Assembly (NCBI GenBank): GCA_965220175.1
Contig: OZ244814.1
Location: forward strand, 300,992-364,991
Reading direction: 5' to 3'
Source: Chloroflexota bacterium
Lineage (GTDB): Bacteria; Chloroflexota; UBA11872; VXOZ01
DNA: 64,000 nt
In this document: one piece after another, positions 2,229 through 60,510 of the stretch
Layout: every line of letters starts with the position of its first letter
How positions within the stretch are numbered: position 1 is the stretch's first letter
Position numbers and translations under genes: made by a program
Notes under the pieces: generated by a model
Told to the model about the DNA's origin: nothing
What the model saw: the letters and a program-made list of their open reading frames with translations, nothing else
Databases searched by the model: none

Positions 2229-2324
2229 TCCGTCACTCCGGCGAACGCCGGAGTCCAGGGAAAAGAGCCGGAGAAGATGGATTCCGCGCCCCCGTACGGG
2301 GTCGAGCTTTCGCGGGAATGACGG
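2229..2324. repeat. Family A composite hairpin repeat (TCCGGCGAACGCCGGA module plus GGATTCC...CGCGGGAATGACGG module)
   Basis: Direct sequence match to copies at 11301..11355, 13665..13736, 29988..30452, 35983..36012, 41587..41781 and 58656..58702. It has perfect short inverted repeats around 4-nt loops. Confidence 0.8.
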
Positions 2325-2410: not shown

Positions 2411-3472
2411 GTGCCGATTGTCACCGCTGATGCCTTGCGCCAAATCGGCCGGGAGTTCTTTATTGCCTTAGGCTGTCTTCCTGATGACGCTCAGATTGTT
2501 GCCGACCACCTGGTGCAGTCGAGCCTCTATGGGCACGATTCCCACGGCATTCTGCGCATGTACGAGTATGCGGACGCCGTGAGCGAAGGACGCGTCCACC
2601 CCCAGAATGCGCCCGAGATCGTAAGCGAAAGCCCGTGCACGGCGGTGATCGACGCCAACGACGGCTTTGGACAAGTGGGCGCGACTCTGGCCGCCACCAT
2701 GGCGATCGAAAAGGCGCGGCAACACGGGCTGGCGAGTATCACCTTGCGCAGAGCAAGCCACATCGGCCGGGCGGGAGAATACCCCGCCATGATCGCTCGC
2801 GCCGGACTGATTGGCACGGCCTACGTCAACTTCGGTCGCTTGGGCATTCAGGTGGCGCCCTTTGGCGGCATTGACGGCCGCCTGGCGACGAATCCGCTGG
2901 CTTTCGCCGCGCCCCGCCGCGACGCTCCGCCCATCATGGTGGACATGACGACGAGCACCGTCGCCGACGGCAAGATCCGTTTGGCTACCAATCTCGGGAA
3001 GCCGCTGCCGGAGGGTTGGATCCTTGATGCGGACGGCAAACCCAGCACGGACCCGCACGACTACTTTGCCGAGCCGCGCGGGGCAATCCTGCCGCTGGGC
3101 GGCCCGCTCGGCCATAAGGGCTACGCGCTGTCTATGATGGTGGAACTCTGCGCCGGGGGCCTGAGCGGTCAGGGCATGGCTTCCGGCGACCCGCGAGCGC
3201 CCGCCAATGCCTTCCTGCTTACCGCCTACAACATCGAGCACTTTACGGACATGGAATTCTTCTACGAAGAGGTGGAAGCCCTGGTCGGCCACGTCAAGTC
3301 GAGCCGCACCGCGCCGGGCGTGACGGAGATACTCTTACCCGGCGAGCCGGAGTTTCGCACCGAGCGTGAGCGCAAACAGTCGGGCATCTCCATCGACGAT
3401 ACCACCTGGGATAGGGTCTGCGCCGCGGCGCGTGACATCGGCCTCGATCCAACTTCCTGGGATTTCGCCTGA
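2411..3472 (+). CDS. Ldh_2 family (malate/L-lactate dehydrogenase family 2) NAD(P)H-dependent oxidoreductase, paralog 1
   Basis: GTG start with AAAGGA RBS. Conserved DSHG, HIGRAGEYP, FGGIDGRLATNPLAFAAP and GGPLGHKGYALS blocks typical of the ureidoglycolate / sulfolactate / pyrroline-2-carboxylate reductase family. Its antisense ORF 2468..3292 is judged spurious. Confidence 0.85.
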   Translation: MPIVTADALRQIGREFFIALGCLPDDAQIVADHLVQSSLYGHDSHGILRMYEYADAVSEGRVHPQNAPEIVSESPCTAVIDANDGFGQVGATLAATMAIEKARQHGLASITLRRASHIGRAGEYPAMIARAGLIGTAYVNFGRLGIQVAPFGGIDGRLATNPLAFAAPRRDAPPIMVDMTTSTVADGKIRLATNLGKPLPEGWILDADGKPSTDPHDYFAEPRGAILPLGGPLGHKGYALSMMVELCAGGLSGQGMASGDPRAPANAFLLTAYNIEHFTDMEFFYEEVEALVGHVKSSRTAPGVTEILLPGEPEFRTERERKQSGISIDDTTWDRVCAAARDIGLDPTSWDFA

Positions 3473-3490
3473 TGCCAAGAGGAGCCGCCT

Positions 3491-4555
3491 GTGCCTACCG
3501 TCGCCGCTGACACTTTGCGCCGCATTGGGTACGCCTGCTTCGAGGCCTTGGGCTGCCGTGCGGATGACGCGCGCATAGTCGCCGATCACCTGGTGCAATC
3601 CAACCTCTTCGGCCATGATTCCCACGGTGTAACCCACATTGAACGGTATGGCCGCGCCGTGTGGGAAGAGCGGCGGGTTGATCCGCAAGCCGTGCCGGAA
3701 GTCGTGCGTGAGCACCCTTGTACGGCAGTGGTGGACGCGCATCATGGGTTCGGCCAGGTGGGCGCGACCTTCGCAACCGAGCTCTTGATCAAGAAGGCGC
3801 AGCAGCACGGTGTCGCCAGTGTCGCATTGCGCAACACAAGCCACATTGGCAGGGCCGGCGCGTACCCACTGATGGTGGCGCGGGCCGGCATGATCGGGCT
3901 GGTCTTCGTCAACGCCGGTCGGATGGGTTTTCAGGTCGCGCCGTTCGGCGGCATCGACGGCCGCCTGGGCACAAATCCGCTGGCCTTTGCCGCGCCGCGC
4001 CGCGCACACGCGCCGCTCTTTGTGGACATGAGTTCCTCAACCGTCGCCGACGGCAAGATCTATCTCGCCGCTAATCAGGGCAAGCCGGTGCCTGAGGGCT
4101 GGTTCGTCGACGCGGACGGCAACCCCAGCACCGACCCGCATGCGTACTTTGAAGAACCGCGCGGGGCTGTGCTCCCGCTGGGCGGGCCTCTAGGGCACAA
4201 GGGGTTTGCGTTGAGCATGCTGATGGAGATCTGCGGTGGAGGGATGAGCGGCCAGGGCATGTCTCAAGGCGACATGCGCGTGAGCAGCAACGGCGTACTC
4301 ATGACCGCCTACGACATCGCCCAGATCGGCGATGTGGAGTTCTTCTATGACGAGGTAGAGGCCCTTGCGCGCCACGTCAAGTCAAGCCGCACGGCGCCCG
4401 GCGTAGACGAAATCCTGCTTCCCGGCGAACCGGAATACCGCGCCGAGCGCGAGCGGACACAAGCGGGCATCCCCATTGACGACACCACGTGGGAGAAGCT
4501 CTGCGCGGCTGCGCGGCACCTCGGCTTGGAACCGACTGCCTGGAAACTCTGCTAA
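3491..4555 (+). CDS. Ldh_2 family oxidoreductase, paralog 2
   Basis: GTG start with GAGGAG RBS, 18 nt after paralog 1. Same conserved blocks. About 75% identical to paralog 3 by eye. Confidence 0.85.
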   Translation: MPTVAADTLRRIGYACFEALGCRADDARIVADHLVQSNLFGHDSHGVTHIERYGRAVWEERRVDPQAVPEVVREHPCTAVVDAHHGFGQVGATFATELLIKKAQQHGVASVALRNTSHIGRAGAYPLMVARAGMIGLVFVNAGRMGFQVAPFGGIDGRLGTNPLAFAAPRRAHAPLFVDMSSSTVADGKIYLAANQGKPVPEGWFVDADGNPSTDPHAYFEEPRGAVLPLGGPLGHKGFALSMLMEICGGGMSGQGMSQGDMRVSSNGVLMTAYDIAQIGDVEFFYDEVEALARHVKSSRTAPGVDEILLPGEPEYRAERERTQAGIPIDDTTWEKLCAAARHLGLEPTAWKLC

Positions 4556-4656
4556 GGTGAAGTCGCGAACCTGAGTGGAATGCCGCCTCGTACGCGTCCG
4601 GCCAAGACTAATTTCCTGCTCAGACTTGACTGGTCCAACGCCGAAAGGAGCCGTTT

Positions 4657-5721
4657 GTGCCTACCGTAACCGCTGAAGCCCTGCGCCGCATTGGCTACGC
4701 CTTCTTTGAAGCGCTGGGCTGCCGACCGGATGATGCCCGCATCATTCAGGACCATCTTGTCCAGTCCAATCTCTACGGCCATGACTCCCACGGCGTGGTG
4801 CGCATGGAGCAGTACTGGCACGCCGTGCGGGAAGAGGGTGTGGTTGACCCGCAAGCGGCGCCGGAAGTCGTGCGTGAACACCCGTGCACCGCGGTCGTGG
4901 ACGCGCATCACGGCTTCGGTCAGGTGGGCGCGGTGTTTGCCACGAAGCTCTTGATAGAGAAGGCGCAACAGTACGGCATCGCCAGTGTCTCGCTGCGCAA
5001 TACGAGCCACATCGGCAGAGTGGGCGAGTATCCGCACATGGTCGCGCAGGCCGGCATGATCGGGCTGATTTTTGTCAATGCGGGGAGGCTGGGCTTTCAG
5101 GTCGCGCCCTTTGGCGGTATCGACGGCCGGCTGGGCACGAATCCACTCGCATTTGCCGCGCCGCGGCGCAACGATCCGCCCTTTTTCGTGGACTTGACGA
5201 CGTCCACCGTCGCCGACGGCAAGATCAAGATAGCCGCTAACGAAGGTAAGCCCTTGCCCGAGGGCTGGATTGTCGATGCGGATGGCAACCCCAGCACGGA
5301 TCCCAGCGACTACTGGGACGAGCCGCGCGGGGCTGTGCTGCCGGTGGGCGGCCCTTTGGGACACAAAGGCACTGCGCTGAGCATGCTGAATGAGATCTGC
5401 GGCGGCGGATTGAGCGGACAGGGCATGTCGGCCGGCGACATGCGAGTGGACAGCAACGGCGTGCACATGACCGCCTACGACATCGGGCAGTTTGTGGAGC
5501 CGGAGTTCTTCTATGACGAGATCGATACGCTCATCAGCCACGTGAAAACCAGCCGCCCGGCTGCCGGCGTGGACGAGGTCCTGGTCGCCAGCGAGCCGGA
5601 GTACCGCGCGCAGCGTGAGCGCGAAAAGACGGGCATCCCTATCGACGAAACGACGTGGAGCAAGCTCTGCGACGCTGCCCGCGACCTGGGATTGAAACCG
5701 GATACCTGGGTACTGGCCTAG
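4657..5721 (+). CDS. Ldh_2 family oxidoreductase, paralog 3
   Basis: GTG start with AAGGAG RBS. Same family blocks. The 409-aa antisense ORF 4552..5781 is judged spurious. Confidence 0.85.
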   Translation: MPTVTAEALRRIGYAFFEALGCRPDDARIIQDHLVQSNLYGHDSHGVVRMEQYWHAVREEGVVDPQAAPEVVREHPCTAVVDAHHGFGQVGAVFATKLLIEKAQQYGIASVSLRNTSHIGRVGEYPHMVAQAGMIGLIFVNAGRLGFQVAPFGGIDGRLGTNPLAFAAPRRNDPPFFVDLTTSTVADGKIKIAANEGKPLPEGWIVDADGNPSTDPSDYWDEPRGAVLPVGGPLGHKGTALSMLNEICGGGLSGQGMSAGDMRVDSNGVHMTAYDIGQFVEPEFFYDEIDTLISHVKTSRPAAGVDEVLVASEPEYRAQREREKTGIPIDETTWSKLCDAARDLGLKPDTWVLA

Positions 5722-5803
5722 AACGGAATTGGTAGACTTGGGTCTAGACCGTGGAGAAATGAAATTAGACGTATGAACCAACGTCTAAGGTGGGTCCTCG
5801 GAT

Positions 5804-5900
5804 CGTCATTCTGAGGAGCGGAGCGACGAAGAATCTCGAATCAGGAGCTCTTTAGATTCCACGAACCGTGTTCGACGAACCCCGTTCGACGCTGAGCTTG
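5804..5900. repeat. Intergenic hairpin repeats (family E GTCATTCTGAGGAGCGGAGCGACGAAGAATC plus partial family B CGTTCGACGCTGAGCTTGG)
   Basis: Reverse-complement copy of the family E core at 25491..25523. The family B motif recurs at 8931..8990, 18497..18575, 19849..19986, 27203..27264 and 58753..58810. Confidence 0.6.
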
Positions 5901-5981
5901 GAGTGACAGGAAACGACTCCCTCAACGCTACCAAGTCTATTGCTACTAAGTCCGGCCTAGAAGACTCTTGCGCTAGAAAGG

Positions 5982-7052
5982 ATGCCGGTTGTGCCGACTT
6001 TCACAGCAAATACCTTGCGCCGCATCGGCGAAGAATTCTTGATCGCCCTGGGATGCCGTCCAGCAGACGCGCAGCTTGTGGCCGATCACCTTCTTCAGTC
6101 AAACCTCTTCGGCCATGATTCCCATGGTGTTTTGCGTTTGTATGAATATGCCCGCGCCGTGCATGAAGGACGCCTCGATCCCTTGGGTTCGCCGGAAATC
6201 GTGAGCGAACACGCTTGCACGGCGGTCGTGGACGCGCACGACGGCTTCGGCCACGTGGGCGCGGCTCTGGCAACCAAGCTGGCGATCGAGAAGGCGCGGC
6301 AGCATGGCTTGGCAAGCGTTTCGCTGCGCCGCGCGAGCCACATCGGCCGGGCGGGAGCGTATCCCCTGGTGATGGCCCAGGCAGGCATGCTCGGTGTGGC
6401 CTACGTCAACTCCGGCCGCATGGGATTCCAAGTAGTGCCGTTCGGCGGCATCGACGGTCGCCTTGGCACCAATCCGCTGGCCTTCGCCGCGCCCCGCCGC
6501 GCCGACCCGCCCATCATGGTGGATATGACGACCTGCACCGTTGCCGACGGCAAGATCCGCGTGGCCACCAATCTCGGCAAACCGCTGCCGGAGGGCTGGA
6601 TCATCGATAAGGCAGGCAATCCCAGCACGGACCCGCAAGTGTATTGGGAGGAACCGCGCGGCGGAATCTTACCTCTCGGCGGTCCGCTCGGGCACAAGGG
6701 CTATGCGCTCAGCTTGATGATGGAACTCAGCGCCGGCGGGCTGAGCGGACACGGCATGTCTTCGGGCGACATGCGCTCACCCGGCAACGGTGCGCTGTTC
6801 ACCGCATACGACATCGCCCACTTCACTGACCTGGACTCCTACTACGACGAGGTTGAGGCCATGGCAAGGCACGTCAAGTCAAGCCGTCCCGCGCCGGGCG
6901 TGACTGAGATATTCCTGCCCGGCGAGCCGGAGTTCCGCACGGAGCGCGAGCGTAAGCAAACAGGCATCTCCATTGACGAGACTACATGGGCAAAGCTCTG
7001 CGAATCCGCTCGCGAACTGGGCCTGGATCCTGGCGCTTGGTGGAATCCGTAA
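5982..7052 (+). CDS. Ldh_2 family oxidoreductase, paralog 4
   Basis: Same family blocks. Most similar to paralog 1. The start may be the in-frame GTG at 5991 rather than ATG at 5982. Confidence 0.8.
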   Translation: MPVVPTFTANTLRRIGEEFLIALGCRPADAQLVADHLLQSNLFGHDSHGVLRLYEYARAVHEGRLDPLGSPEIVSEHACTAVVDAHDGFGHVGAALATKLAIEKARQHGLASVSLRRASHIGRAGAYPLVMAQAGMLGVAYVNSGRMGFQVVPFGGIDGRLGTNPLAFAAPRRADPPIMVDMTTCTVADGKIRVATNLGKPLPEGWIIDKAGNPSTDPQVYWEEPRGGILPLGGPLGHKGYALSLMMELSAGGLSGHGMSSGDMRSPGNGALFTAYDIAHFTDLDSYYDEVEAMARHVKSSRPAPGVTEIFLPGEPEFRTERERKQTGISIDETTWAKLCESARELGLDPGAWWNP

Positions 7053-11062: not shown

Positions 11063-11300
11063 GTGTGCGCTCCTTCTCCATTCGCGTGCGGTCGTTTGAG
11101 TCAGTGTACCGTACGCCCTAGGCATTGTCACTCGTTTCCGATGCCTATAGTTTGCAGCACCTCACCAATCCAAGTAGACGGCAGTCAGCTCTGACTAGGA
11201 CTTGCTCTGAACTGCTGCGCCGCAAGCGGACAGTCGCTCAAACGCCCTCTCGGCTTCTAGACTTAGGCCCTCGAAAGCAGTGGTCCAAGGCGATCTCAAT

Positions 11301-11355
11301 AAAGATGGATTCCCGCTTTCGCGGGAATGACAGACACTTTTGCGGGAATGATTGA
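11301..11355. repeat. Family A repeat, partial (GGATTCCCGCTTTCGCGGGAATGAC module duplicated)
   Basis: Matches module 2 of the composite repeat seen at 2276..2324 and 30090..30120. Confidence 0.7.
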
Positions 11356-13476: not shown

Positions 13477-13658
13477 GGGAGGGCATGCTCCAGTGGGACG
13501 GCCAGACGTACCTGATTCACGGTAGCGCGGGAATTACTGGGTTGTCAACGTTTTTGAGGATAGGAGTCAGTAGACTTGGCATTAGACCGTAGAGAGAGAA
13601 ACTGAAAGTGTTGTCTAATTCGCTGACAGAACCTGCCGCCAGTTCAATCTTACAAGGC

Positions 13659-14519
13659 CTAGAGTACGCCTCTTCCCGTCATTCCGGCGGCAGCCGGAAT
13701 CCATCTTCTCCGCGTGCCCTGGACTCCGGCTTTCGCCGGAGTGACGGACCTTTGTGTTTCATGTGTTTCTGAATTCAGTTCGTTTCCGCAGCAAACGGGC
13801 TTGTTGTGCCTGGTGCCGGTATTTATTTCCCATTGGCGTGCCAGTATAAGCAAGGCAAAGTTCACCGACCCAAAGTTCTGGCGCATGAATTCAGTCTCGA
13901 ACTCCCCCGGGACCTCGCTGCCGGGCACGTCCCGCACGGCGGATAACGTGAGTCCGGCATCAGATACAGCTTGGAGATAGTCGTCACGGGTATGCGTTTC
14001 GTTGGGCAGGTGATAGGTCACGCCGTCCTCGACGAACTGTGTCGGCATGCCACAGGAGACAAAGTCGGGATGTACGTCAGTAATGAGCAGATGCGCTCCA
14101 GGCTTCATCAAACGGTAGAACTCACCGACCGCCCCTGTGAGATTCGCGACATGGCAGAGAGTCAGTGCGCAGACCACCAGATCGAAGGCGGCAGACTCGA
14201 CCGGAACTTCGTCCTCTAGCGACGAACTCTTGAATTCAATGGGGAGGTTCTCACTGGCTGCGGCGCGTTTTGCAAAGGCTCGCATTTGAGGATTGGGCTC
14301 AACGGCCGTAACCTGCCAGCCTCGCCGTGCAAGTTTCAGGGCAAACCGTCCGGTCCCGGCGCCTGCATCGAGCGCGGTGCTACCCTCCAAGCCATCCAGT
14401 ATGTCCAGCGAGTATACCTCTTCGGTGGCGATGAGTGTATTCCACGTCGTGTCGTAGCTCTGCGCCCAGCGTGAGTAGCCTTCCATCAGGCTTACCTTGA
14501 CTGGTGTCGGCTGTCCCAT
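13659..14519 (-). CDS. class I SAM-dependent methyltransferase (C-terminal ~30 codons supplied by a family A repeat)
   Basis: LDAGAGTGRFA motif I. The reading frame runs through repeat copy 13665..13736 (translated ...VTPAKAGVQG...WIPAAAGMTG) before stopping. Confidence 0.7.
   Translation of the reverse strand: MGQPTPVKVSLMEGYSRWAQSYDTTWNTLIATEEVYSLDILDGLEGSTALDAGAGTGRFALKLARRGWQVTAVEPNPQMRAFAKRAAASENLPIEFKSSSLEDEVPVESAAFDLVVCALTLCHVANLTGAVGEFYRLMKPGAHLLITDVHPDFVSCGMPTQFVEDGVTYHLPNETHTRDDYLQAVSDAGLTLSAVRDVPGSEVPGEFETEFMRQNFGSVNFALLILARQWEINTGTRHNKPVCCGNELNSETHETQRSVTPAKAGVQGTRRRWIPAAAGMTGRGVL
13665..13736. repeat. Family A composite repeat (inverted orientation) overlapping the 3' end of the methyltransferase gene
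   Basis: CGTCATTCCGGCGGCAGCCGGAATCCATCTTC ... CCCTGGACTCCGGCTTTCGCCGGAGTGACGG. Confidence 0.8.
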
Positions 14520-18181: not shown

Positions 18182-18575
18182 GCAGAGCCTGCCCTGTATT
18201 CGACACGGGGTTGCAAACCTGCGTTACCGGGAATACGTCGAGAGTTGCCATAGCGGTTGCTTCTTTCTGCGTAGGGCTGCGCTGTGCAGACTACAAGCTG
18301 AGGGGGGAATCGTGATAGGCTGTGCGGGGGGTATACACCATTATATGACGGATGCACTGAGAAGCAAAACTTAACGGGCAAACTGGTGCTGCTGCGGGCA
18401 ATTGGCGTAGGGCCCTCAGCACGAACGGGCAAAGCTGTCCATTGCGTGCACGAGAAGAGTTAGAGCTTGCAATAGCCCTGATCAACCACGGTGGCGAGCG
18501 TTCGCACTGAGCCGTTCGCCCTCCTCCGTTCGCACTGAGCACTTCGACAAGCTCACCACAGGCCTGTCGAAGGGC
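18182..18575. repeat. Intergenic cluster of family C (18182..18240) and family B (18497..18575) hairpin repeats
   Basis: Sequence matches to other copies (see 15768, 19849, 27203, 58753). Confidence 0.65.
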
Positions 18576-25314: not shown

Positions 25315-25748
25315 GATTTTTGCATTCAGACCCGGCTGTGCAGGCAGCCGCCTCGTTTGCTTCAAATAGCCGTTGTCAGTTTGGCAGGTATTCTCTGTAG
25401 CGGGATCAGTCGATTCACGTTTGATTTCCTCATCGGATTAGGCTTCATGTCATTCCGAGCGTAGCGAGGAATCTAAAATGCCCCCAATTCTAGATTCTTC
25501 GTCGCTGCGCTCCTCAGAATGACATTTGCGAGTTGGCTCAGATCTAGGACGATCACTTGTCTTACCTTTGGCTACGCCAAGCCCAAGTCTGCAAATTCCG
25601 ATCTGAAGTTCCCTTGACACCTGCCGTATTTCGCTGCAACCTATAAGGCAATATCGGCGTGAGGTGCGCAAGCAGCGCGTGGGGGACTTTGAGAATCCAG
25701 TCAAGCAGTGCGTATCTCAATTGGAGAGCATGTAGAGGAGCAATTCTC

Positions 25749-29835: not shown

Positions 29836-29987
29836 GTGTGGACTCCTCTTCTATTACGCGTCCCTTACCCGCCTATTCTACAATGCACGGGATTGAGTGA
29901 AGCGGAATCGCCGCTTACGGCACTCCCAGCGCGGCTTGAAGCAATCGACTTCACTGTTTGCGACTAAGGCGCGGAATTAGACGCGTA

Positions 29988-30452
29988 GCGCGGGGGCTTG
30001 TCCTCCGCTCCGCCATTTAGAATAAGGAACGACACCTATCCGTCACTCCGGCGGAAGCCGGAGTCCAGGGCACGCGGGCCCGGAATAAAGATGGATTCCC
30101 GCGTGCGCGGGAATGACGGTCTGACGGCGCAGATTGCAGTACCGCCTTCTATTCACCGTATCGCGGGGGCTTGTCCTCCGCTCCGCCATTTAGAATAAAG
30201 AACGGCACCCATCCGTCACTCCGGCGAAAGCCGGAGTCCAGGGCGCCCGCGGCAGGAATGAAGATGGATTCCCGTTTTCGCGGGAATGACGGTCTGACGG
30301 CGCAGGTTGCAGTGCCGCCCAATCTTCACCGTAGTGCGGGGGCTGATCCACCGTATCGCCATCAAACCAAACCACGGAACCTTTCCGTCACTCCGGCGGA
30401 AGCCGGAGTCCAGGGCACTCGCAGCAGGAATGAAGATGGATTCCAGCATGCA
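29988..30452. repeat. Tandem array (about 2.7 copies of a ~175-bp unit) of family A composite hairpin repeat
   Basis: Units start at about 29988, 30163 and 30335. Each contains CGCGGGGGCTTGTCC, CCGTCACTCCGGCG(G/A)AAGCCGGAGTCCAGGG, GATGGATTCCCG(C/T)(G/T)T(G/T)CGCGGGAATGACGG and GACGGCGCAG(A/G)TTGCAGT. ORFs called inside it (29998..30198, 30171..30476, 30190..30375) are artefacts. Confidence 0.85.
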
Positions 30453-30615
30453 GACCTCTCTATTGTGGTGGGTTGAGCTACTCGCTGTCTTAATCATATG
30501 ACTGGCTGTCTTTTGAAAAGTCAACGCAACCTAGTATAGTGATACCCACAAGCGACAGGGCGCCACCACAAAAGGGGCCTGAGTTTCAGCTTTGGAGTGT
30601 GGGTGGGGCGTCAAT

Positions 30616-31884
30616 ATGATTGGGGCGTTGACGGACGCCTTGCAAGAGTGCGACTTCTTGTCTGAAAAGGCCGGTGAGACTATGTACGGCGTAATCTGGA
30701 CGTATCCCTGGGACGTGCTCGACGCGGGCGTTGACACTGCGATGGCGCAGATCGCCAATGAAGGCGGCATGCAGGCGGTTTCCCTCAGCCACAGCTACCA
30801 CAACGTCAAGCACTTGCGGCCCCACAACCCCGGTCGCAAGCTCTTTGTCGCTAACTCGTCGGCCATTTACTTTCAACCCGACCTCAAGCGTTACGGCGCC
30901 ATCAAGCCCATCGTGGCCCCGCTGGTGCAGGAAGACGACGGCATGCGCCGCATCCGCGACGCTGTAGAAAGACACGGCCTCGCGTATCATGCCTGGACGG
31001 TCACCCTGCACAACAGCGCGCTTGGCACGATTTATCCCCACATCAACACGCTCAATGCCCTGGGCGACCGCATTCCCCATTACCTCTGCCCCAGTAATCC
31101 CGATGTGCGCATCTACTTTACGGCGCTGCTGAGCGATATGGCCGACAATCTCGCCCCCGACCAGGTCGAACTGGAGTTCCTGCATTTCGGCACCTTCGAA
31201 CACGACGTCCACCACGGCATACAGAGTGTGGAATTGGACCCTTTCACCGAATACCTGCTGGGTCTCTGCTTCTGCGAGCATTGCTTGGGCCGCGCTCAAG
31301 CGGCAGGGGTGGATGGTGAGGCCGTGCGCCGGTGGGCCCAGGGCCACATCCTCGACTACCTGGAAGGCGATCAGTTGCCCGCGCTCGGGGGCTTGGGCGA
31401 CAACATCGCCGGCCATGCGCTCACGTTTGCCGCGCTTGACGGCTACCTGCGCATGCGCATCGATAGTGTCATGTCGCTCTGGGCCGAGTGCAAACAGGCC
31501 TTGGGCGGCAAGTCGGACTTTGTGCCCATCGTCAACATGGGCGTCGGCATGCCTGACCAGGCATCGGTCAAACAGGCGCTGGACGGTGTCGACATCGGCC
31601 GCGCTCTCGATGAAGGCATCCCAAACGAACTGCTCGACTGCGCCGCGTATTCGCTGGACGGTCTCATTCTCAGACGCGCCGTCCACGACTTGCGACGGTT
31701 GGTAGATGATCGGGTGCCCATCCGCGAGGGATTGCGGCTCATTCCGCCGCAGGTGATTACGTCGGCGGACGTGGCTGGACAGATCGAAAAGGTGCGCGCG
31801 CTCGGCATCGACCGCGTGAACGTCTACAACTACGGCCTGATGCGCCTAGCCAATCTGCGGGCAGCCAAACAAGCGCTGGCGTAG
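30616..31884 (+). CDS. hypothetical protein (possibly a TIM-barrel glycoside-hydrolase-like fold; unassigned)
   Basis: Long ORF with protein-like composition (W/Y/F/H rich). The antisense ORF 30586..31686 has antisense-type R/A/V/G bias and is rejected. No firm family recognised. Confidence 0.5.
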   Translation: MIGALTDALQECDFLSEKAGETMYGVIWTYPWDVLDAGVDTAMAQIANEGGMQAVSLSHSYHNVKHLRPHNPGRKLFVANSSAIYFQPDLKRYGAIKPIVAPLVQEDDGMRRIRDAVERHGLAYHAWTVTLHNSALGTIYPHINTLNALGDRIPHYLCPSNPDVRIYFTALLSDMADNLAPDQVELEFLHFGTFEHDVHHGIQSVELDPFTEYLLGLCFCEHCLGRAQAAGVDGEAVRRWAQGHILDYLEGDQLPALGGLGDNIAGHALTFAALDGYLRMRIDSVMSLWAECKQALGGKSDFVPIVNMGVGMPDQASVKQALDGVDIGRALDEGIPNELLDCAAYSLDGLILRRAVHDLRRLVDDRVPIREGLRLIPPQVITSADVAGQIEKVRALGIDRVNVYNYGLMRLANLRAAKQALA

Positions 31885-32079
31885 GTCACATGTATGCCGC
31901 CCTCCTACCCAACAAACAATGAAAGATGGCGGGGCGGCGTAGGGGCACGATATATCGTGCCCCTACAAGATAATGGATGGCGGTAGTAAAACCAAAGACG
32001 ATACATACCTGAACCGATTGAAGATGGAATAGGCAGTTTATGAGGCTCAGGTTTTGTTCCCTCTCCTGGGGGAGTGTAT

Positions 32080-33335
32080 AGACCGGGTTGATGGGTAACA
32101 CTTGTTCGGGCTGATAGGTTACACCTAAAGGCATGGAGAATCTTGCAGCAGGAGGATGGCCATGCCGTGGAAGGTGGAAACACTTATGTCTGCTCGGGAA
32201 GAATTTATCGCTCTGGCACTGGCTGACGGGGCGAACATGAGTGAGCTGTGTCGGCGCATGGGGATCAGTCGGAAGACCGGGTACAAGACGCTGCGGCGGT
32301 ACGCGCAGAGTGGTGCAGACGGTCTGCAGGACCGGTCGCACCGCACGCACACGTGTCCGCACCGCACGAGCCGGGAGATGGAGGAACGCATCATCGCGTT
32401 GCGGCTGGCGCATCCCAAGAAGGGCGCGCACGTGCTGCGCAGGATGCTGCAAGACCAGGGGGTGACCGACGTGCCGGCCAAGAGCACGATCCAGGCCATG
32501 CTCAAGCGCAATGGCCTCATCGACCCTGCAGAGAGCGCCAAGCATACTCCCCAGGTGCGCTTTGAGTACCCTGCGCCCAACGACCTGTGGCAGTTGGACT
32601 TCAAAGGGCATTTCAGCATGCAGCACGACCGCTGCCATCCGCTCACGCTCCTGGACGATCATTCTCGCTTCAACCTCACGCTCCAAGCCTGTGCCAACCA
32701 GCGTGGCGAGACGGTGCAAGACCGCCTCACCACGGCCTTTCGCCGCTACGGCCTGCCCCAGGCCATGCTCATGGATAACGGCTCACCCTGGGGCAACGAC
32801 GCCGGTCAGCCCTACACGCCCTTCACCGTCTGGCTCATGCACCTGGGCATCACCGTGCGCCACAGCCGACCCTACCATCCCCAAACCCTCGGCAAGCTCG
32901 AACGCTTCCACCGCTCCCTCAAAAGCGAATTGCTGCAGGGCCGTACCTTCACCGACCTGGAGCACTGCCAACGCGCCTTCGACACGTGGCGTCATTTCTA
33001 CAACTTGGAACGCCCGCACTATGCCCTCGGCCTGGACACTCCCATCAGCCGGTACACGCCCAGTGCACGCTCCTTCCCCGAGACCCTGCCTGCCCTTGAA
33101 TACGACCCCGACGATCAGGTGCGCAGCGTCGACGTCTCCGGCCGCATCTCTTTCCAGGGCAGCAGGCTCCGTGTCGGCAAAGCTTTCACCCACAAACAGG
33201 TCGCACTGCGACCCACCCCAACAGACGGCGTCTGGAACGTGTACTTCTCAAGACAACGCCTAAAGTCCATAGACCTCAGAGAACAAAATGTGTAACCTAT
33301 CAACCCGAACATCTGTTACCTATCAGCCCAGTCTG
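32080..33335 (+). mobile_element. IS481-family insertion sequence (~1.25 kb) with ~40-bp imperfect terminal inverted repeats, inserted into a family D palindromic repeat
   Basis: Left end CCGGGTTGATGGGTAACACTTGTTCGGGCTGATAGGTTACAC pairs with the reverse complement of the right end CTGGGCTGATAGGTAACAGATGTTCGGGTTGATAGGTTACAC (36 of 42 positions). The flanks (CCCTCTCCTGGGGGAG on the left, CAGGGAGAGGGTTAGGGTGAGGGG on the right) are the two halves of a family D repeat. Confidence 0.75.
32156..33295 (+). CDS. IS481-family transposase (DDE integrase core)
   Basis: N-terminal HTH region followed by an rve-type integrase core (LWQLDFKG, MLMDNGSPW, RPYHPQTLGKLERFHRSL). Confidence 0.85.
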   Translation: MAMPWKVETLMSAREEFIALALADGANMSELCRRMGISRKTGYKTLRRYAQSGADGLQDRSHRTHTCPHRTSREMEERIIALRLAHPKKGAHVLRRMLQDQGVTDVPAKSTIQAMLKRNGLIDPAESAKHTPQVRFEYPAPNDLWQLDFKGHFSMQHDRCHPLTLLDDHSRFNLTLQACANQRGETVQDRLTTAFRRYGLPQAMLMDNGSPWGNDAGQPYTPFTVWLMHLGITVRHSRPYHPQTLGKLERFHRSLKSELLQGRTFTDLEHCQRAFDTWRHFYNLERPHYALGLDTPISRYTPSARSFPETLPALEYDPDDQVRSVDVSGRISFQGSRLRVGKAFTHKQVALRPTPTDGVWNVYFSRQRLKSIDLREQNV

Positions 33336-33396
33336 TACAGGGAGAGGGTTAGGGTGAGGGGTCAAGAGGGACTATACGTACACTGAGAAGGTACTT

Positions 33397-35982: not shown

Positions 35983-36012
35983 TCCGTCATTCCGGCGAAA
36001 GCCGGAATCCAG
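35983..36012. repeat. Family A repeat module (GTCATTCCGGCGAAAGCCGGAATCC)
   Basis: GAAA-looped perfect hairpin identical in design to module 1 elsewhere. Confidence 0.7.
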
Positions 36013-37195: not shown

Positions 37196-38938
37196 CTAGC
37201 AATCGCTCATGATCGGCTGAGCGCTCTGCGCAACGCGCGCGATGGCGTCCAACTTCTCGCCTATTTCGGGATCGATTTCGTCCTGCGGCACAAATTCGGC
37301 CAACTCGTAGAAGGCTTTCTTGCGCATGAGGTTGGGCAAACTGAGGTGCCGAAAGTAGGCTTCGAACACCGGCCTAAGGAAGTCGTCGCTCGCCTTAATG
37401 TCAGAGTCCCACGGCGAGCCCAAGCCTAGAGTGCGCAACGCTTCTGCGATATTGGCAACGGCTGCGCGCATTGCCTCAAGCCGTCGCGGGACTTCAGCGC
37501 GCGCAAACAAGGGGCCAGGCGCGTCAGACTCCGCCGTACTTTGTGCGTAGGCCTCCAGTGTCGCTTGGGAACAAAGGTAGTTTTCAATCTCGCGCCGCTG
37601 CCAGGTTAGCCGCTCAACCTGACCGGTCTCGGGCGTACCGGAGTCTGGGCGGTCGAAGAGCGCGACGCCTTTTAGATGCGGCAGCGCCTCCCTGAGTCCG
37701 TGAAAGTGATGCGGTACTGCTGAAGCGTTGTTGCCAACGTAGTGCACGTAGGGACGTTCCAGGGCACGACCCGCCTCTGCGTGTCCAAGGCGTCGCGCGA
37801 ATGCCTGTAAGATCGAGAGGTCTGTGGATCCCTCCAAGTAGAGCACCCAGCCCGTCTGCTTCGCCTGATAGTAGTGTTCGAAGCCAATGTCCTTTGGGGA
37901 CTTCAAGAGTTGACTACCCTGGTCGTCGATGCGGTGGGGCTCTCCAATGAACGCGATCACCATATCCTTGCCGGCAGCCTCGTCGAGCAGCACTTCAGAG
38001 TGGCTGGCTGCGATGATCTGGCTACCGCTGGCGGTAGCGGCGTCAGTGATGAGGCGATAGATTTGGCGCTGCCTCAAGATTTCAAGGTGTGCGTCCGGCT
38101 CATCCAGCATGAGCACTGCACCTGGATTGGCATACATATAGGCCAAAATGAGCAGAGTCTGCTGGAGACCCCGTCCGCTGGATGATAGGTCTAGCGTGAC
38201 ATCATGTTCACGATAGCTCATGGCAATCTCACCACGCTCCGTGATGTACCGGGGCGGCTCAATGTGCACACCAAACAAGCTGCGAATCTGAGCAGTTAGC
38301 TCCTGCCAAGCCTCAGAGTGTTCCTCGTAGATACCGTAGCAGAGATTTCGCAATACCTCCGCCGTACGTCCCTCGCCTACACGTACAGTCACCGCCCCAG
38401 GGTCTAGCCGTGTTTCTGTAGCAGCAAGACCGGACATTGGTGGCAAGAACGCAACCTGCACACTGCCAGCCGCTTCTGGTACCGGCATTCTTTCGGCCGT
38501 GCTGGTATTGGTTTCTCGCAATGGGCGGCAATAGAATGATTCCTCGTTGGCGTAGTCAAACTCCAGCCCACAGGTCCACGGTTGATCGTCAGTGACGCCC
38601 TCCACGATGACATCGATCCGCACGTTCTGGGTTTGCTGCTTGCCGTTCTCTATGCGCACGTCTCGCGAATGTAGTCCGTGCCACAAGAGACGTGCACTCG
38701 GCACCGGAATGGCAACAAGGTCTCGTCGATTGACAGTTACACCAGGTCGCTTTTCTGGCGCGCCCTTGCCCCGACGCTTCTCATTCCATCGTTTCAGCCC
38801 AACGTCCCAAAGCGCCAGCGCCTGCATGGCTGAGGTCTTGCCCGAGTTGTTGGGGCCGATGAACGCCACCGGGCTGCCAAGCTCGATCTCCACCTCGTCA
38901 AAGCGCTTGAAGTTGCGGATGGTGAGTTTAGTCAGCAT
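37196..38938 (-). CDS. OLD-family / PARIS-like ABC-ATPase fused to a C-terminal TOPRIM-like (DUF4435-like) nuclease domain
   Basis: Walker A FIGPNNSGKTS at the N-terminus. Walker B VLMLDEPDAHLE about 300 aa downstream (split ABC ATPase as in OLD/AriA/GajA). C-terminal WVLYLEGSTD ... ALFDRPDSG resembles the TOPRIM glutamate and DxD motifs. Start taken at MLTKLTIRNF; the ORF extends to 39016. Confidence 0.6.
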   Translation of the reverse strand: MLTKLTIRNFKRFDEVEIELGSPVAFIGPNNSGKTSAMQALALWDVGLKRWNEKRRGKGAPEKRPGVTVNRRDLVAIPVPSARLLWHGLHSRDVRIENGKQQTQNVRIDVIVEGVTDDQPWTCGLEFDYANEESFYCRPLRETNTSTAERMPVPEAAGSVQVAFLPPMSGLAATETRLDPGAVTVRVGEGRTAEVLRNLCYGIYEEHSEAWQELTAQIRSLFGVHIEPPRYITERGEIAMSYREHDVTLDLSSSGRGLQQTLLILAYMYANPGAVLMLDEPDAHLEILRQRQIYRLITDAATASGSQIIAASHSEVLLDEAAGKDMVIAFIGEPHRIDDQGSQLLKSPKDIGFEHYYQAKQTGWVLYLEGSTDLSILQAFARRLGHAEAGRALERPYVHYVGNNASAVPHHFHGLREALPHLKGVALFDRPDSGTPETGQVERLTWQRREIENYLCSQATLEAYAQSTAESDAPGPLFARAEVPRRLEAMRAAVANIAEALRTLGLGSPWDSDIKASDDFLRPVFEAYFRHLSLPNLMRKKAFYELAEFVPQDEIDPEIGEKLDAIARVAQSAQPIMSDC

Positions 38939-39067
38939 TGGTAACCATCGTGTTCTTTCATTCAGCCTCGCAATTCTGCACTTCGCGGAAGATCGGCTTT
39001 CGCAGCAGTGTACCACTCGGCGCAGGGCGACCGAATGGCGTAGCGACCGCCAAATGCCAAGTCATCG

Positions 39068-39379
39068 TCAAGTCTCATAGATGGGCGTTCTCGTGGCCTC
39101 GACTGCTTCCATGAAGTATGGGTTCCTGATGGCCGACTCGACTACCAAGTCCACCGGCTTGTTGAAAAGCCGTTGCAGAGCTTCCAGCAAACCAAAGTAC
39201 GTGTTGGCGTAGACGCCGGGTGGCAGCGGTTCGAACTCCACCACAAAGTCGAGGTCGCCTGCCGCCGCCAAGTCCCGGCCGATCGCGGCTGAACCAAACA
39301 GGGCAAGCCGCCGGACACGGTAGCGGCGGCAGAGCCGTTCCACATCGGCAGCCTGTTTGCTAATGACCGGGTGAGGCAC
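39068..39379 (-). CDS. minimal nucleotidyltransferase (MNT, Pol-beta superfamily) domain protein
   Basis: RLALFGSAAIGRDLAAAGDLDFVVEF is the GSxxxG...DxD nucleotidyltransferase signature. Probable GTG start at 39379 preceded by GGGAGGG. The longer ORF to 39595 overlaps the purH fragment and is judged an artefact. Confidence 0.6.
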   Translation of the reverse strand: MPHPVISKQAADVERLCRRYRVRRLALFGSAAIGRDLAAAGDLDFVVEFEPLPPGVYANTYFGLLEALQRLFNKPVDLVVESAIRNPYFMEAVEATRTPIYET

Positions 39380-39461
39380 GTCGCCCTCCCGCCTGTCTAG
39401 GCAAGAAAATAACTTTAGTTGCTCCTGCTCACCGTCATCTTGGTCAGGTGCACGGCAGGTG

Positions 39462-40034
39462 TCACGTGACCTTCTTGAAATACCCCGCAATATGCGTGTC
39501 GTAGTCGGCGGTGTGTTGAAAGGCCTTGGCGGCGAGGCGGGTGCGCAGGGCGGAGTCAACCTGCCCGCCGGTGAGCGCGCTGAGCACCGGAGCATAGTCG
39601 GCCGGGTCTACCACCACGAGCACGGAATCCGCGTTCTTGGCGGCGGCGCGAATGAGCGTCGGGCCGCCGATGTCGATGTTTTCCACGATCTCGTCGTGCC
39701 CGGCTCCGCTGCGCAGAGTTTCGACGAAGGGATAGAGATTCGAGGCAACTATCTGCACCGGCGCGATGGCGTGGTCCCGCAACGTTTGCATGTGTACCGG
39801 GTCGTCCTGCCGCGCCAGGATGCCGGCATGCACCACCGGGTGAAGCGTCTTTACGCGGCCGTCCAGGATTTCGGGAAAGCCGGTCACGTCGCTGATGCCG
39901 GTGACGGAAACTCCCGCCGCTACCAGCGCTCCCTGCGTGCCGCCGGTGGAGACGATCTCCCAGCCGAGCTTGGCCAGGCCCTGACCGAATTCTACGATGC
40001 CGGATTTATCGAATACGCTAAATATGGCGCGCAT
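39462..40034 (-). pseudogene. purH: purH 5' fragment (IMP cyclohydrolase / MGS-like N-terminal domain only, 190 aa); the AICAR transformylase part is absent
   Basis: Translation aligns residue-for-residue with the first ~200 aa of PurH (VSDKSGIVEF, GRVKTLHP, NLYPF, DIGGPTLIRAAAKN, HTADYDTHIAGYF) and then stops. The position where the C-terminal ~320 aa should be encoded is occupied by the MNT and ATPase-TOPRIM genes. Confidence 0.5.
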
Positions 40035-41586: not shown

Positions 41587-41781
41587 CCGTCGCTCCGGCG
41601 AAAGCCGGAGTCCAGGGGTGGGGCGGGTGGAGTGTCCGGTAGACGCGAGATGAGGTGGGCACTCCTTGCAAAGCGGTGGATGGATTCCGCGCCCCCGCGC
41701 GGGGGCGAGCTCTCGCGGGAATAACGGGCGAAATCAGCCCCCTCACCTGGGCCTCTGGATTCCGGCTTCCGCCGGAGTATC
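41587..41781. repeat. Family A composite repeat (module 1, module 2, inverted module 1) immediately adjacent to the IS110 element
   Basis: CCGTCGCTCCGGCGAAAGCCGGAGTCCAGGGG ... GATGGATTCCGCGCCCCCGCGCGGGGGCGAGCTCTCGCGGGAATAACGG ... GGATTCCGGCTTCCGCCGGAGTATC. Confidence 0.8.
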
Positions 41782-41794
41782 TGTGTTAGAAGTC

Positions 41795-43105
41795 AAGTTA
41801 ATTTAGGGACCTGCAGCAAGGTAGTCCTGCCACGGTGTGCCGCGCCGGACGATGGCGTTGAGTTGCAGGAGCATTTTGCGCATTACCGCCACCAGGGCGA
41901 CTTTGCCCGGCTTACCCCGCTGGCGCAGACCTTGGTAGAAGCGCTGCAGGCTGTTGTCCTGGCGGATAGCAGACAAGGCGGCGAGGTAGAGAGCGCGGCG
42001 CACGACGCCCCGGCCGCCGCGGATGGCGCGATAGCCGCGCTGCTGTCCGCTGTCCCGTGACCACGGTGCGAGACCTGCCAGCGCGGTCAAGGCCTTACCG
42101 GAGAGCTGACCGAGTTCGGGGAGGAAGGCGGTGAGGATGGCGGCGGTCAAGTCGCCGACGCCGCGCATGCTGCCGAGCAGTTGGGCGCGCTGGCGCAGGT
42201 GCTGGCTGCGCTGCAGGGTCGCTTGATACTGCTGGTCCAGCCGTTCTATCTCCTTATCCAGCCAGCGGATGTGGCGTGTGACGGAGCATTGGCTAACGGA
42301 GGAGAGGCCTTTGTCCAGACGGTTCTGTTCCTGCACACGTTGCTTGACGAGTTGCTGGCGGCGCTGCAGCACATCTTGGAGCTGTTCACGTTCCGGGGAG
42401 GGCGCCGGAAGGTCCTCCAGCGCCATCACAGCGCCGTACCGGGCGAGCACCTGCGCATCCAGGCGATCGGTCTTCGCTTCCTTGCCACAGGCGCGGGCAA
42501 AGGCCCGCACCTTGTTGGGATGCGCCACCTCCACTGAGGGCAGCGCCGTGTGCAGACGCTTTACCACTTGGCGCTCATACCCGCCGGTCGGCTCACACAC
42601 TGCCACCGTGACGCCTGCAGCTTGCAGCCAACGCACCAGGGCGGTGATACCCACCGTGGTGTTCGCGAAACGCCGCACGGGGCCGCCCGCTACCGACACA
42701 TCGAGTTGCGCTTTCCCAACATCGATCCCTGCCACAACTTTCATCCCGCTCTCCTTCCTGGCATACTGGTGGTGTCCTCCACACTTGCAGATGCGGGCCA
42801 TTGGTCTGCCCAGGTATCTGTTCGGAGCGACATTCTGGCGCGAGGGGTGTCGTACTCCGGCGCGATGCAGCCAGGCCACTGCCTCGGCTCACCTAATGAC
42901 GGACGACGCGCCCCTCGCGTTGCCACTCAACTTCGCTCATTTGCCCGCCTTTTTCAACATACAAATGACGGAAAGAGGAGCGCGCGAGGCCTTGCAAGTG
43001 CGAATCGACAGCAGATTCTGCCAACGAATTACTCAACACTTGCACCAATGACCAAAACGTCAACTCTCCCTGTTGGAAGGCGATTCCATCAACGCATTGC
43101 ACAAC
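41795..43105 (-). mobile_element. IS110-family insertion sequence (~1.3 kb, approximate boundaries) flanked by family A repeat modules
   Basis: DEDD-type transposase gene inside. No clear terminal IRs, as expected for IS110. A family A half-module (TTCCCGCTTTCACGGGAATC) lies at 43113..43132 on the far side. Confidence 0.5.
41803..42744 (-). CDS. IS110-family transposase
   Basis: MKVVAGIDVGKAQLDVSV start with GGAAGGAGAG RBS. C-terminal region typical of IS110/IS1111 transposases. Confidence 0.85.
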   Translation of the reverse strand: MKVVAGIDVGKAQLDVSVAGGPVRRFANTTVGITALVRWLQAAGVTVAVCEPTGGYERQVVKRLHTALPSVEVAHPNKVRAFARACGKEAKTDRLDAQVLARYGAVMALEDLPAPSPEREQLQDVLQRRQQLVKQRVQEQNRLDKGLSSVSQCSVTRHIRWLDKEIERLDQQYQATLQRSQHLRQRAQLLGSMRGVGDLTAAILTAFLPELGQLSGKALTALAGLAPWSRDSGQQRGYRAIRGGRGVVRRALYLAALSAIRQDNSLQRFYQGLRQRGKPGKVALVAVMRKMLLQLNAIVRRGTPWQDYLAAGP

Positions 43106-43154
43106 ACTTCCCATTCCCGCTTTCACGGGAATCAACCCTTAAGGAAGCCGTCCG

Positions 43155-58655: not shown

Positions 58656-59085
58656 GGATGGATTCCGCGTCCCGGTTCGGGGCGAGCTAGCGCGGGAATA
58701 TCCATGGCCTTGTTCAGGCCGCGCAAGGGAATGAAAGTGAACGCACATCTCTCCGTTCGTGCTGAGCACTTCGGCAGGCTCAGTACGAGCTTGTCGAAGT
58801 ATGAACGGAGATAATAGGGTGCGGAGTTGCTACCAATGCTGTCGCACTAAGATTAGGGCGGTACGCCCGTTGGGTGCGCTCTGCCCCCTCTCCCTGGGGA
58901 GAGGGCCGGGCTGAGGGGAAATGGCGGGCGCAGGTTGCAAACCTACGCTACCGGGGACGTGTGGCGCGGTGTTCATTGCCACATCATTTAATGTGACAGC
59001 ATTGGGAGTTGCTACTCGCTACCTCCGCCGTTCACCCTGCGACGCTGCTCAGAGCCTGCCCCGTACCGGATACGGGGGCGAACGG
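58656..59085. repeat. Intergenic repeat cluster: family A module (58656..58702), family B (58753..58810), family D (58882..58917), family C (58929..58955 and 59050..59085)
   Basis: Each matches copies elsewhere in the window (see the other repeat entries). Confidence 0.7.
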
Positions 59086-59225
59086 TGTGATAGCCTATTC
59101 TCACGGTAGTGACGGATTGTATAGCGTAGGATGACAGACTGGGTAGCGCGGGGGCTTGTCCCCCGCCTGTGCGCTCAGGAGAGAACGGCAGAGTTTCGCC
59201 AGCGACGAACGAGGAGCGGCAGCGC

Positions 59226-60347: not shown

Positions 60348-60483
60348 TGCACCGATGCGTCTGTCTGGTTGAGCGAGAGTAGAAATAGCACGAGACGAAG
60401 AGGCGGGGGACAAGCCCCCGCGCTACGTTGCGGCAGCGGTGCGCTGGCTCGCGATGACGGCACGAGCCTCGAAACCTTGAATC

Positions 60484-60510
60484 CGGTAGCGCAGGTTTGC
60501 AACCTGCGGC
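60484..60510. repeat. Family C repeat (CCGGTAGCGCAGGTTTGCAACCTGCGG)
   Basis: Reverse complement of GGTTGCAAACCTGCGCTACCGG seen at 18213..18236 and 58929..58955. Confidence 0.6.

Follow-up and report, generated by a model that had tools for sequence, protein, structure and literature searches.

CGTC-1 palindromic repeats in a Chloroflexota contig: module structure, turnover between relatives and an IS110 element in one module

What kind of element is the hairpin repeat that stands in tandem between two divergent genes, and recurs at other sites, in a 64,000-nucleotide stretch of a Chloroflexota bacterium (contig OZ244814.1, positions 300,992 to 364,991; hereafter the window, in whose own coordinates all positions are given)? 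The repeat, here called family A, is by its sequence a repetitive extragenic palindrome (REP) of the CGTC-1 kind, a short palindromic repeat without coding capacity of its own. The superfamily of CGTC-tagged REPs was defined by Di Nocera, De Gregorio & Rocco 2013, BMC Genomics 14:522 (PMC3733652), and this kind of repeat is already described; new are its Chloroflexota host, its 173-bp tandem amplification and the splitting of a CGTC-1 module by an insertion sequence (IS) of the IS110 family. Taken as a whole, we consider it likely that family A is a CGTC-1 REP whose hairpin is maintained and whose copies are turned over without a linked transposase gene, that these copies are selfish or nearly neutral, and that the array was amplified without a dedicated function.

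A single module in two orientations

Two hairpins are found in the window far more often than in shuffled sequence: TCCGGC-N4-GCCGGA has nine exact matches (0.02 expected) and TCCCGC-N4-GCGGGA has two (0.04 expected). A first-pass annotation had taken them for the two parts of a composite element. However, the reverse complement of the second hairpin with its flanks is the first, CGTC-A[Y]TCC[S]GC-NNNN-GC[S]GGA[R]T-CCA, and the supposed composite is one module that occurs in two orientations and forms inverted dimers. The module is 27 nt long and consists of a CGTC tag, an 8-bp stem (AYTCCSGC/GCSGGART), a 4-nt loop and a CCA tail. TCCGGC and TCCCGC differ by a compensatory change at stem position 6, and both stem types occur in both orientations.

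A census with the 27-nt query CGTCAYTCCSGC-N4-GCSGGARTCCA at up to three substitutions returned 12 modules at seven loci of the 64-kb window, against ~0.5 matches in random Markov sequence of the same composition even at up to five substitutions. The homology that had been claimed for the interspersed copies is borne out by these counts, as are most of the sites listed for them; the match at 43113-43132 is only a degenerate look-alike (43109-43135, plus strand) with five mismatches in 27 and neither a CGTC tag nor a CCA tail, and is not counted as a member. The tag reads CGTC in ten of the 12 modules and TGTC in one, and the remaining module has been cut off from its tag by an IS. All 12 canonical modules have a 4-nt loop, and all canonical modules carry the CCA tail. 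The loops include GAAA, GAAC, GGAA and GGCA, the four listed by the first-pass annotation, and also GCAC; its description of the hairpins as GNRA-looped does not hold, as GAAC, GGCA and GCAC, together with the GAAG and GCAG loops found in other genomes, are not of that type.

Every one of the six dimers in the window (2231/2278-2323, 13677/13720, 30041/30092, 30214/30265, 30386 with a truncated partner, and 41588/41681-41726) is inverted with the tags outside, and the spacers measure 16-64 nt. As single strands the dimers fold much better than shuffled sequence (z = -3.5 to -7.4), and the predicted folds are either two local hairpins closed by a CCGTCA/TGACGG helix or one long hairpin. In three large-loop variants (2278-2323, 41681-41726 and 58659-58699) the tetraloop is replaced by ~25 nt with a nested CCCCG..CGGGG hairpin.

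These features are those given for CGTC-1 repeats, which are defined by an unpaired CGTC or TGTC tag (CCTC being tolerated), an 8-bp stem, a 4-nt loop and a CCA tail, form mainly “HH” dimers (tags outside) with spacers of 20-100 nt, occasionally have large loops, are mostly intergenic, and have no associated transposase that could be found (PMC3733652). The window copies match in the tag, the 8-bp stem starting with A-T, the 4-nt loop, the CCA tail, the tags-outside dimers, the intergenic siting, the large-loop variants and the lack of a linked transposase gene. They differ in the frequent C-G second stem pair and in tandem mosaic clustering. Such clustering is called rare for CGTC repeats, and large loops are reported for Bradyrhizobium CGTC-1 (PMC3733652).

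Species-representative genomes were scanned with GTCAYTCCSGCGAAAGCSGGARTCCA, which gave at least 120 stretches, and all cross-genome counts in this text rest on these. The 120 loci listed contain 250 modules, with a CGTC tag in 164, a TGTC tag in 73 and the CCA tail in 238. Their dimers have the tags outside in 62 cases and inside in ten, eight are in tandem, and spacers range from 3 to 129 nt. In tags, tails and dimer types these modules agree with CGTC-1 as it was defined (PMC3733652). The loop is mostly GAAA, with GAAG (24), GCAG (8) and GAAC (7) also present. The first stem pair is A-T in 81 of 88 sequence types; the second is T-A in 62 and C-G in 21. Stem cells are paired in 96.4% of cases, and 72 cells carry a double change, compared with 17.6 in shuffles, none of 500 shuffles reaching as high a number. 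Stem positions 2, 3 and 6 show the compensation, perfectly paired stems come in at least 12 distinct types, and the search pattern imposed no complementarity at positions 2 and 6. The pattern of these changes indicates that the hairpin potential is maintained through compensatory change. Selection on structure had been proposed earlier from variable loops over conserved stems; the maintenance stands, but its best evidence is compensation within the stem rather than variation of the loop. G.T and A.C combinations are similar in number (9 and 16), and consequently nothing points to selection acting on one transcribed strand; upkeep of the palindrome at the DNA level could be as easy as at the RNA level.

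Outside the array, the copies are placed as follows. The dimer at 2231-2323 joins a canonical module (2231-2257, plus strand) to a large-loop variant (2278-2323, minus strand; z = -3.9). The TGTC-tagged module at 11306-11332 (minus strand) has a decayed partner at ~11266-11292. The dimer at 13677-13746 is a homodimer of modules at 13677-13703 (plus strand) and 13720-13746 (minus strand) with a 16-nt spacer (z = -6.5 and -7.4). A single module at 35985-36011 (plus strand) lies between M20 peptidase and AstE/AspA genes. The dimer at 41588-41726 pairs a module at 41588-41614 (plus strand) with a large-loop variant at 41681-41726 (minus strand). The large-loop variant at 58659-58699 (minus strand) has lost its tag and lies 15 nt past the stop of a glyoxalase gene.

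The tandem array and its turnover between relatives

Tandem Repeats Finder, run on the whole window, places the array at 29984-30451 with a period of 173, 2.7 copies and 84% matches, in agreement with the earlier description of 2.7 copies of a ~175-bp unit. It is the sole strong tandem array that the program reported in the window and measures 468 bp in total; the unit was also followed by repeat search and unit alignment, in which units 1 and 2 are 88% identical. Each unit contains, in order, a REP with a GTAG tag (family B, GTAGCGCGGGGGCTTGTCCYCCGC), a spacer, an inverted CGTC-1 dimer with its tags outside, and the relic of a second GTAG REP (GGCGCAGGTTGCA), which is comparable to copies at 58929 and 60486. 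In unit 1 the GTAG REP (29985-30008, plus strand) is followed by a left arm at 30041-30067 (plus strand, loop GGAA) and a right arm at 30092-30118 (minus strand, TCCCGC stem type, loop GCAC), the dimer folding with z = -4.4. Unit 2 has its GTAG REP at 30158-30181, a left arm at 30214-30240 (plus strand, loop GAAA) and a right arm at 30265-30291 (minus strand, one mismatch). In unit 3 the GTAG REP (30331-30354) is degenerate, and the module at 30386-30412 (plus strand) faces a partner reduced to TGGATTCCA at 30437-30445, where the array ends.

The search for family B gave four matches at up to three mismatches against none expected. Outside the array the repeat lies at 59143-59166 (plus strand) and 60403-60426 (minus strand). 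We also note that an aminotransferase gene (59169-60347) is bracketed by two GTAG REP families as inverted pairs, GTAGCGCGGGGGCTTGTCCCCCGC and GTAGCGCAGGTTTGCAACCTGCG, at 58929-58951, 59143-59166, 60403-60426 and 60486-60508.

The array lies between an AAC(3)-like gene and an open reading frame (ORF) at 30682-31884. A promoter-like TTGAAA-16-TATAGT for this ORF is present at 30513-30540 (plus strand), and its -10 is kept in orthologous loci. On the AAC(3) side, GCCTATTCTACA at ~29871-29882 provides in reverse complement a -10-like TAGAAT for the AAC(3) gene. Both GCCTATTCTACA and the TATAGT -10 are conserved in the three loci that retain the AAC(3) gene. As the two conserved elements flank the array on either side, the array is probably situated between two divergent promoters and outside both mRNAs.

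Syntenic loci for comparison were obtained through orthologues of the protein starting at 30682 (84-93% identity), which gave four, L217, L219, L220 and L221; a metagenome scan with ORF 30592 gave only relatives at 36% identity or less, too distant for synteny. In the window, 846 bp separate the AAC(3)-like gene from ORF 30682 and contain 2.7 units. The corresponding gap is 214 bp without any REP in L217 (93% identity), 277 bp without a CGTC module in L221, and 157 bp without a unit in L219, where the AAC(3) gene is replaced by a neighbouring gene. In L220 it is 479 bp and holds one GTAG REP and one CGTC-1 module in the order of the window unit. The number of units, which the first-pass annotation had suggested comparing, thus does vary, being 0 in L217, L219 and L221, 1 in L220 and 2.7 in the window. 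At the other sites, L001 lacks the 13677-13746 dimer at its orthologous position, and the modules at 35985 and 11306 are absent from orthologous sites in L221 and L001, while the relatives bear copies elsewhere. Copies missing at orthologous sites but present elsewhere in the same relatives point to turnover, and the compared sequences indicate that it proceeds on the timescale of species divergence.

An IS481-like IS with 50-bp terminal inverted repeats occupies 32075-33339 (rve integrase 32156-33295); the orthologous loci L217, L220 and L221 lack it. The relatives carry a further hairpin repeat of the type CCTTCTCCC-ATCAA-GGGAGAAGG (7075-7105 in L221; ~2540-2575 in L123 and L125) at intergenic positions that in the window are occupied by CGTC modules or by no module.

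In the reading that we favour, the modules would be selfish or nearly neutral, multiplying through recombination or through some enzyme that acts in trans, and would be tolerated chiefly where no genes lie. A mosaic cluster of a GTAG REP and a CGTC-1 dimer, like the state seen in L220, would have existed first. This cluster would then have been duplicated into the 468-bp array, either by slippage or by unequal recombination involving the repeated modules, within the stretch free of promoters that separates the divergent AAC(3)-like gene from ORF 30682. The array is probably without a dedicated function.

The position of the array invites another reading, in which the repeats are architectural sites of the DNA for gyrase, nucleoid proteins or cruciform formation, comparable to the bacterial interspersed mosaic elements (BIMEs) of E. 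coli, and the array insulates the two divergent promoters. The array is indeed exactly between the two promoter elements, and the upkeep of the palindrome is symmetric between the strands. However, close relatives without any copy at this place retain both promoter elements, and the copy number is variable; we regard such a role as very unlikely.

A cis-acting RNA element, with the dimers transcribed at mRNA 3' ends as stabilisers, attenuators or RNase-processing sites as proposed for E. coli REPs, deserves more weight, although we still hold it to be rather unlikely. Of the seven window sites, six do follow the 3' end of a gene that runs in the same or a convergent orientation, shuffled sequence folds far less well than the dimers, and a similar case was argued for CGTC REPs by Di Nocera et al. 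2013 (PMC3733652). Against this stand the location of the array between two divergent promoters, probably in neither mRNA, the lack of a T-run past the hairpins (one weak case excepted), the lack of strand asymmetry among the wobble pairs described above, the absence of a match in Rfam, and the gain or loss of copies between relatives at 84-93% protein identity. Nor does the gene context of the modules in the 120 loci listed, sorted by crude ORF calls into convergent, unidirectional and divergent, depart clearly from the background; no bias against divergent gaps is seen.

The genes next to the modules were also considered. The 150 flanking ORFs show no enrichment of any gene family (they match 174 Pfam families, with four members at most), and no transposase is among the Pfam families listed for them. 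These results bear on the possibility of a classical miniature inverted-repeat transposable element (MITE), in which each dimer would be a deletion derivative of an IS and would be mobilised by the transposase of that IS via its terminal inverted repeats. Each dimer is a perfect or near-perfect ~27-nt inverted repeat around a short spacer, and relatives are polymorphic for its presence, as would suit a MITE. On the other hand, single modules and large-loop variants are common, the spacers vary in length between 3 and 129 nt, and no duplicated target site can be seen, although the empty sites have diverged too far for their junctions to be defined. No IS with such ends was found in the window or the 120 loci listed, where the flanking genes are ordinary, and the literature likewise reports no associated transposase (PMC3733652). 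A MITE origin is given little credence here.

An IS110 element within a module and a dimer within a reading frame

The IS that separates one module from its tag is a member of the IS110 family and occupies 41777-42964 (minus strand; 1188 bp). Its transposase (coding sequence 41803-42744, 313 aa) has the DEDD and Transposase_20 recombinase domains (Pfam PF01548 and PF02371), and homologues of 313 aa exist. The ends of the element, defined from 14 related insertions in different contexts (L123-L136), are a left end of 220 nt (42745-42964) and a right end of 26 nt, without inverted terminal repeats; the left end starts with TTGTATGTTGAAAAAGGCGGG and the right end closes with TTGACTTCTAACACAGATAC. 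The element splits a single CGTC-1 module into CGTCAT (42965-42970, minus strand) and the remainder (41756-41776, minus strand; 3' part TCCGGCGGAAGCCGGAATCCA). It is thus inserted into a module and is not flanked by a pair of modules that the IS would mobilise.

All 14 related insertions, like the window copy, lie at (C/T)GTCAT^...TCC of a REP, and the right flank divides them into two groups. In group 1 (the window copy and L123-L130) the flank is TCCGGCGAAAGCCGGAATCCA, with L131 retaining only TCCGGCG. In group 2 (L132-L136) it is TCTGAGGAGC...GACGAAGAATC, belonging to a TGTC-tagged repeat. The group-2 target repeat (GTCATTCTGAGGAGCG..GACGAAGAATC, with a TGTC tag and a large loop) is also present in the window, at 5805-5863 and 25465-25523. 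In addition, a TTGAC-rich element (AAGTGTTGWCTAATTCGYTGACAG...) is found beside CGTC modules and IS110 sites, at 13606-13650 and ~43000-43060 in the window and in L126, L128, L130, L131 and L134.

The left end contains two guide-like segments, CCGTCATTA at 42894-42902 and CGCCGGAGTA at 42853-42862, which covary with the target family. We denote the CGTC-1 target sequence as CGTCATTCCGGCGAAAGCCGGAATCCA and the second target family as ATTCTGAGGAGC, the latter going with the segment GTCTCAGAGTA. The left segment reads CCGTCATTA in one group and CTGTCATTA in the other, in the same sense as the left flank. The right segment reads CGCCGGAGTA or GTCTCAGAGTA, which are the reverse complements of TAC+TCCGGCG and TAC+TCTGAGAC, respectively. 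In the predicted fold of the left end the two segments lie on opposite sides of an internal loop. The junction dinucleotides are unequal, AT on the left and AC on the right, and do not allow a core to be assigned. By its sequence and predicted fold, the left end is bridge-RNA-like, with predicted guides that match the CGTC-1 module, and the sister elements appear to be reprogrammed to a second REP family. A search of the IS110 region with Rfam returned no matching model, only a chance match to an internal ribosome entry site.

The 13677-13746 dimer raises a different question, since a methyltransferase ORF (13659-14519, minus strand; 286 aa) passes through it without a stop. The first-pass annotation had seen here an insertion in frame, reminiscent of Rickettsia palindromic elements (RPEs), that supplies the C-terminus of the protein, and had proposed a comparison with orthologues. 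More than 100 orthologues have 219-237 aa and end in ..LARKGK/R, 52 codons earlier. DNA alignment with two syntenic orthologues reveals a single extra C at ~13835/13836 in the window. The ancestral TAA is retained at 13823-13825, out of frame, with the extra C 10 nt upstream of it, and the dimer starts ~70 nt downstream of this stop. Because the extra C shifts the frame past the TAA, the ORF runs for 52 codons through intergenic DNA and the dimer. The ORF does read through the element, as had been noted, but as judged from the alignment the extension is a frameshift read-through into intergenic DNA and not an RPE-style insertion in frame; the extra C may be an assembly error, perhaps in a homopolymer. 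That RPE-like elements contribute protein segments by insertion into genes is suggested by the open passage through the dimer and by the RPE-6 and RPE-4 elements of R. conorii, members of the same superfamily that do occur inside genes (PMC3733652). With all other window copies intergenic and the ancestral stop in place ahead of the dimer, we find this reading extremely improbable.

For annotation, the consequence is that such repeats generate spurious ORFs and, together with a single-base indel, a false protein extension; the 286-aa product with its false 52-residue extension is already deposited in public databases. The five spurious ORFs pointed out earlier are all present as open frames. 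The translated repeat peptides (VIPAKAGIQ, DSRFRGND and others) gave no match in the literature. A dispersed repeat, CCGTTCG.GCTGAGC..GTCGAAG, at 18524, 19847, 19930, 27229 and 58751 likewise translates to common spurious peptides of the PFVLSLSKHE / FDKLRANG type.

Two further gene groups of the window may be mentioned. A purH-like ORF at 39462-40034 stops after the MGS domain and the first 59 AICARFT positions and adjoins a nucleotidyltransferase (39068-39595) and an AAA_21/AAA_15 ATPase (37196-39016); the region 37196-40034 could be a defence-type insertion or another frameshift. Four tandem Malate/L-lactate dehydrogenase (Ldh_2) paralogues at 2411-7052 share 69-82% DNA identity.

Weighing the reading against known systems

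Exact 26-mers of the repeat occur in at least 12 phyla, as judged by record titles among the matches listed: Pseudomonadota (several isolates and a Rickettsia endosymbiont), Desulfobacterota, Bacteroidota, Chloroflexota (many closed Dehalococcoidia chromosomes), lineages of the candidate phyla radiation, Vampirovibrionales, Acidobacteriota, Planctomycetota, Omnitrophota, Nitrospirota, Zixibacteria and Armatimonadota. The module has no match in a phage collection, and its matches in a plasmid collection are only Neisseria and Photobacterium chromosomes filed as plasmids.

Several points weigh against the picture of a selfish or nearly neutral CGTC-1 REP. Near-identity of a 26-mer over at least 12 phyla is hard to square with neutral junk and hints at a conserved trans-acting partner or function, although many of the cross-phylum matches are contigs of metagenome-assembled genomes, and mis-binning may inflate the phylum list. 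Most window copies have C-G as their second stem pair, whereas stem positions 1-2 of CGTC repeats are described as almost invariably A/T (PMC3733652). An RNA-level role may exist at the six sites downstream of genes. Finally, the comparisons between relatives do not reveal the way in which new copies arise, the intergenic DNA being too diverged to define a target-site duplication or a clean empty site.

A bolder interpretation takes the wide distribution at face value. CGTC-1 would be a nearly invariant 27-nt module of at least 12 phyla, kept uniform by a conserved trans-acting machine, and a pan-bacterial “safe harbour” that co-evolves with bridge-RNA elements; the machine may be an RNA-guided IS110 recombinase, of the kind that here and in Neisseria is aimed at the module, or an HUH-type enzyme that reads the CGTC tag. 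In tblastn, the window IS110 transposase has no match in the 120 cross-phylum loci, and IS110 is accordingly not generally adjacent to the modules. We consider this interpretation unlikely and return to the CGTC-1 REP without a linked transposase gene in the comparisons below.

Some other classes of element were considered and set aside. In an intrinsic terminator the hairpin would not be expected to be followed, as here, by a CCA tail and then G-rich sequence, and one array module alone passes a loose terminator scan. The R'/R'' core sites of an attC site are lacking, no variable spacers separate the units as in a CRISPR, and no riboswitch is matched in Rfam. The Rfam search that had been proposed for the element found no family that reached the gathering score anywhere in the window, and the array had none even at E<=1.

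Within REP biology, the present case adds Chloroflexota to the hosts of CGTC REPs, which were listed in five phyla with Chloroflexi not one of them (PMC3733652), and provides one orthologous site with 0, 1 or 2.7 units. CGTC-1 is also the dRS3 repeat of Neisseria and the RPE-6 of Rickettsia conorii, and RPE-4 belongs to the same CGTC superfamily (PMC3733652). The window module is identical at 31 of 33 positions to dRS3 sites of N. gonorrhoeae, whose sequence is CGTC-ATTCCCGC-GCAG-GCGGGAAT-CCA. Neisserial intergenic mosaic elements (NIMEs) are likewise intergenic mosaics, with dRS3 interleaved with other repeat units. In NIMEs, however, the partners are RS units, whereas in the window the partner is a GTAG REP and the arrangement is a regular 173-bp tandem of only 2.7 units.

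The likeness to RPEs drawn by the first-pass annotation proves apt by another route, RPE-6 and RPE-4 having been placed in the same CGTC superfamily as the window module (PMC3733652), and an exact 26-mer dimer is present in a Rickettsia endosymbiont (L079). Rickettsia RPEs are known for insertions in frame within genes, whereas the single coding overlap in the window is a frameshift read-through. The REPs, BIMEs and REPINs of E. coli and Pseudomonas, the last with their RAYT transposases, are alike in having tagged palindromes, inverted dimers, mosaic tandems of the BIME-2 kind and presence or absence between strains. The REPIN-RAYT system differs in its GTAG/GTGG tag as opposed to CGTC in family A, no RAYT gene was found near family A, and the domain Y1_Tnp was not found among the 36 window ORFs scanned. 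The GTAG repeats of the array are of the classical REP kind and qualify for REPIN/RAYT on the tag only.

IS110 elements that target REPs are known in IS621 (PMC11208160), ISPpu10 and IS1111 in Coxiella QMITE2, and the Nf prophages of Neisseria, which carry an IS110-type transposase, integrate into dRS3 (PMC7058167). The recurrent link of IS110 to CGTC-1, here and at dRS3, is a lead for REPs described as being without a dedicated enzyme, although it leaves the multiplication of the repeats themselves unexplained. In the bridge RNA of IS621, the left guide (LTG) matches the left target and the right guide (RTG) is complementary to the right target (PMC11208160). The window IS is similar in having internal-loop segments of which one is identical to the left target half and one complementary to the right. 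It also shares with IS621-type elements the DEDD and Transposase_20 domains, the long left and short right ends, the lack of inverted terminal repeats, and the fixed position in a REP. This is in contrast to the target itself, which is a GTAG REP for IS621-type elements and a CGTC-1 REP for the window IS; for bridge-RNA biology, the window thus offers a sequence-level case of an IS110 element with predicted guides that match a CGTC REP.

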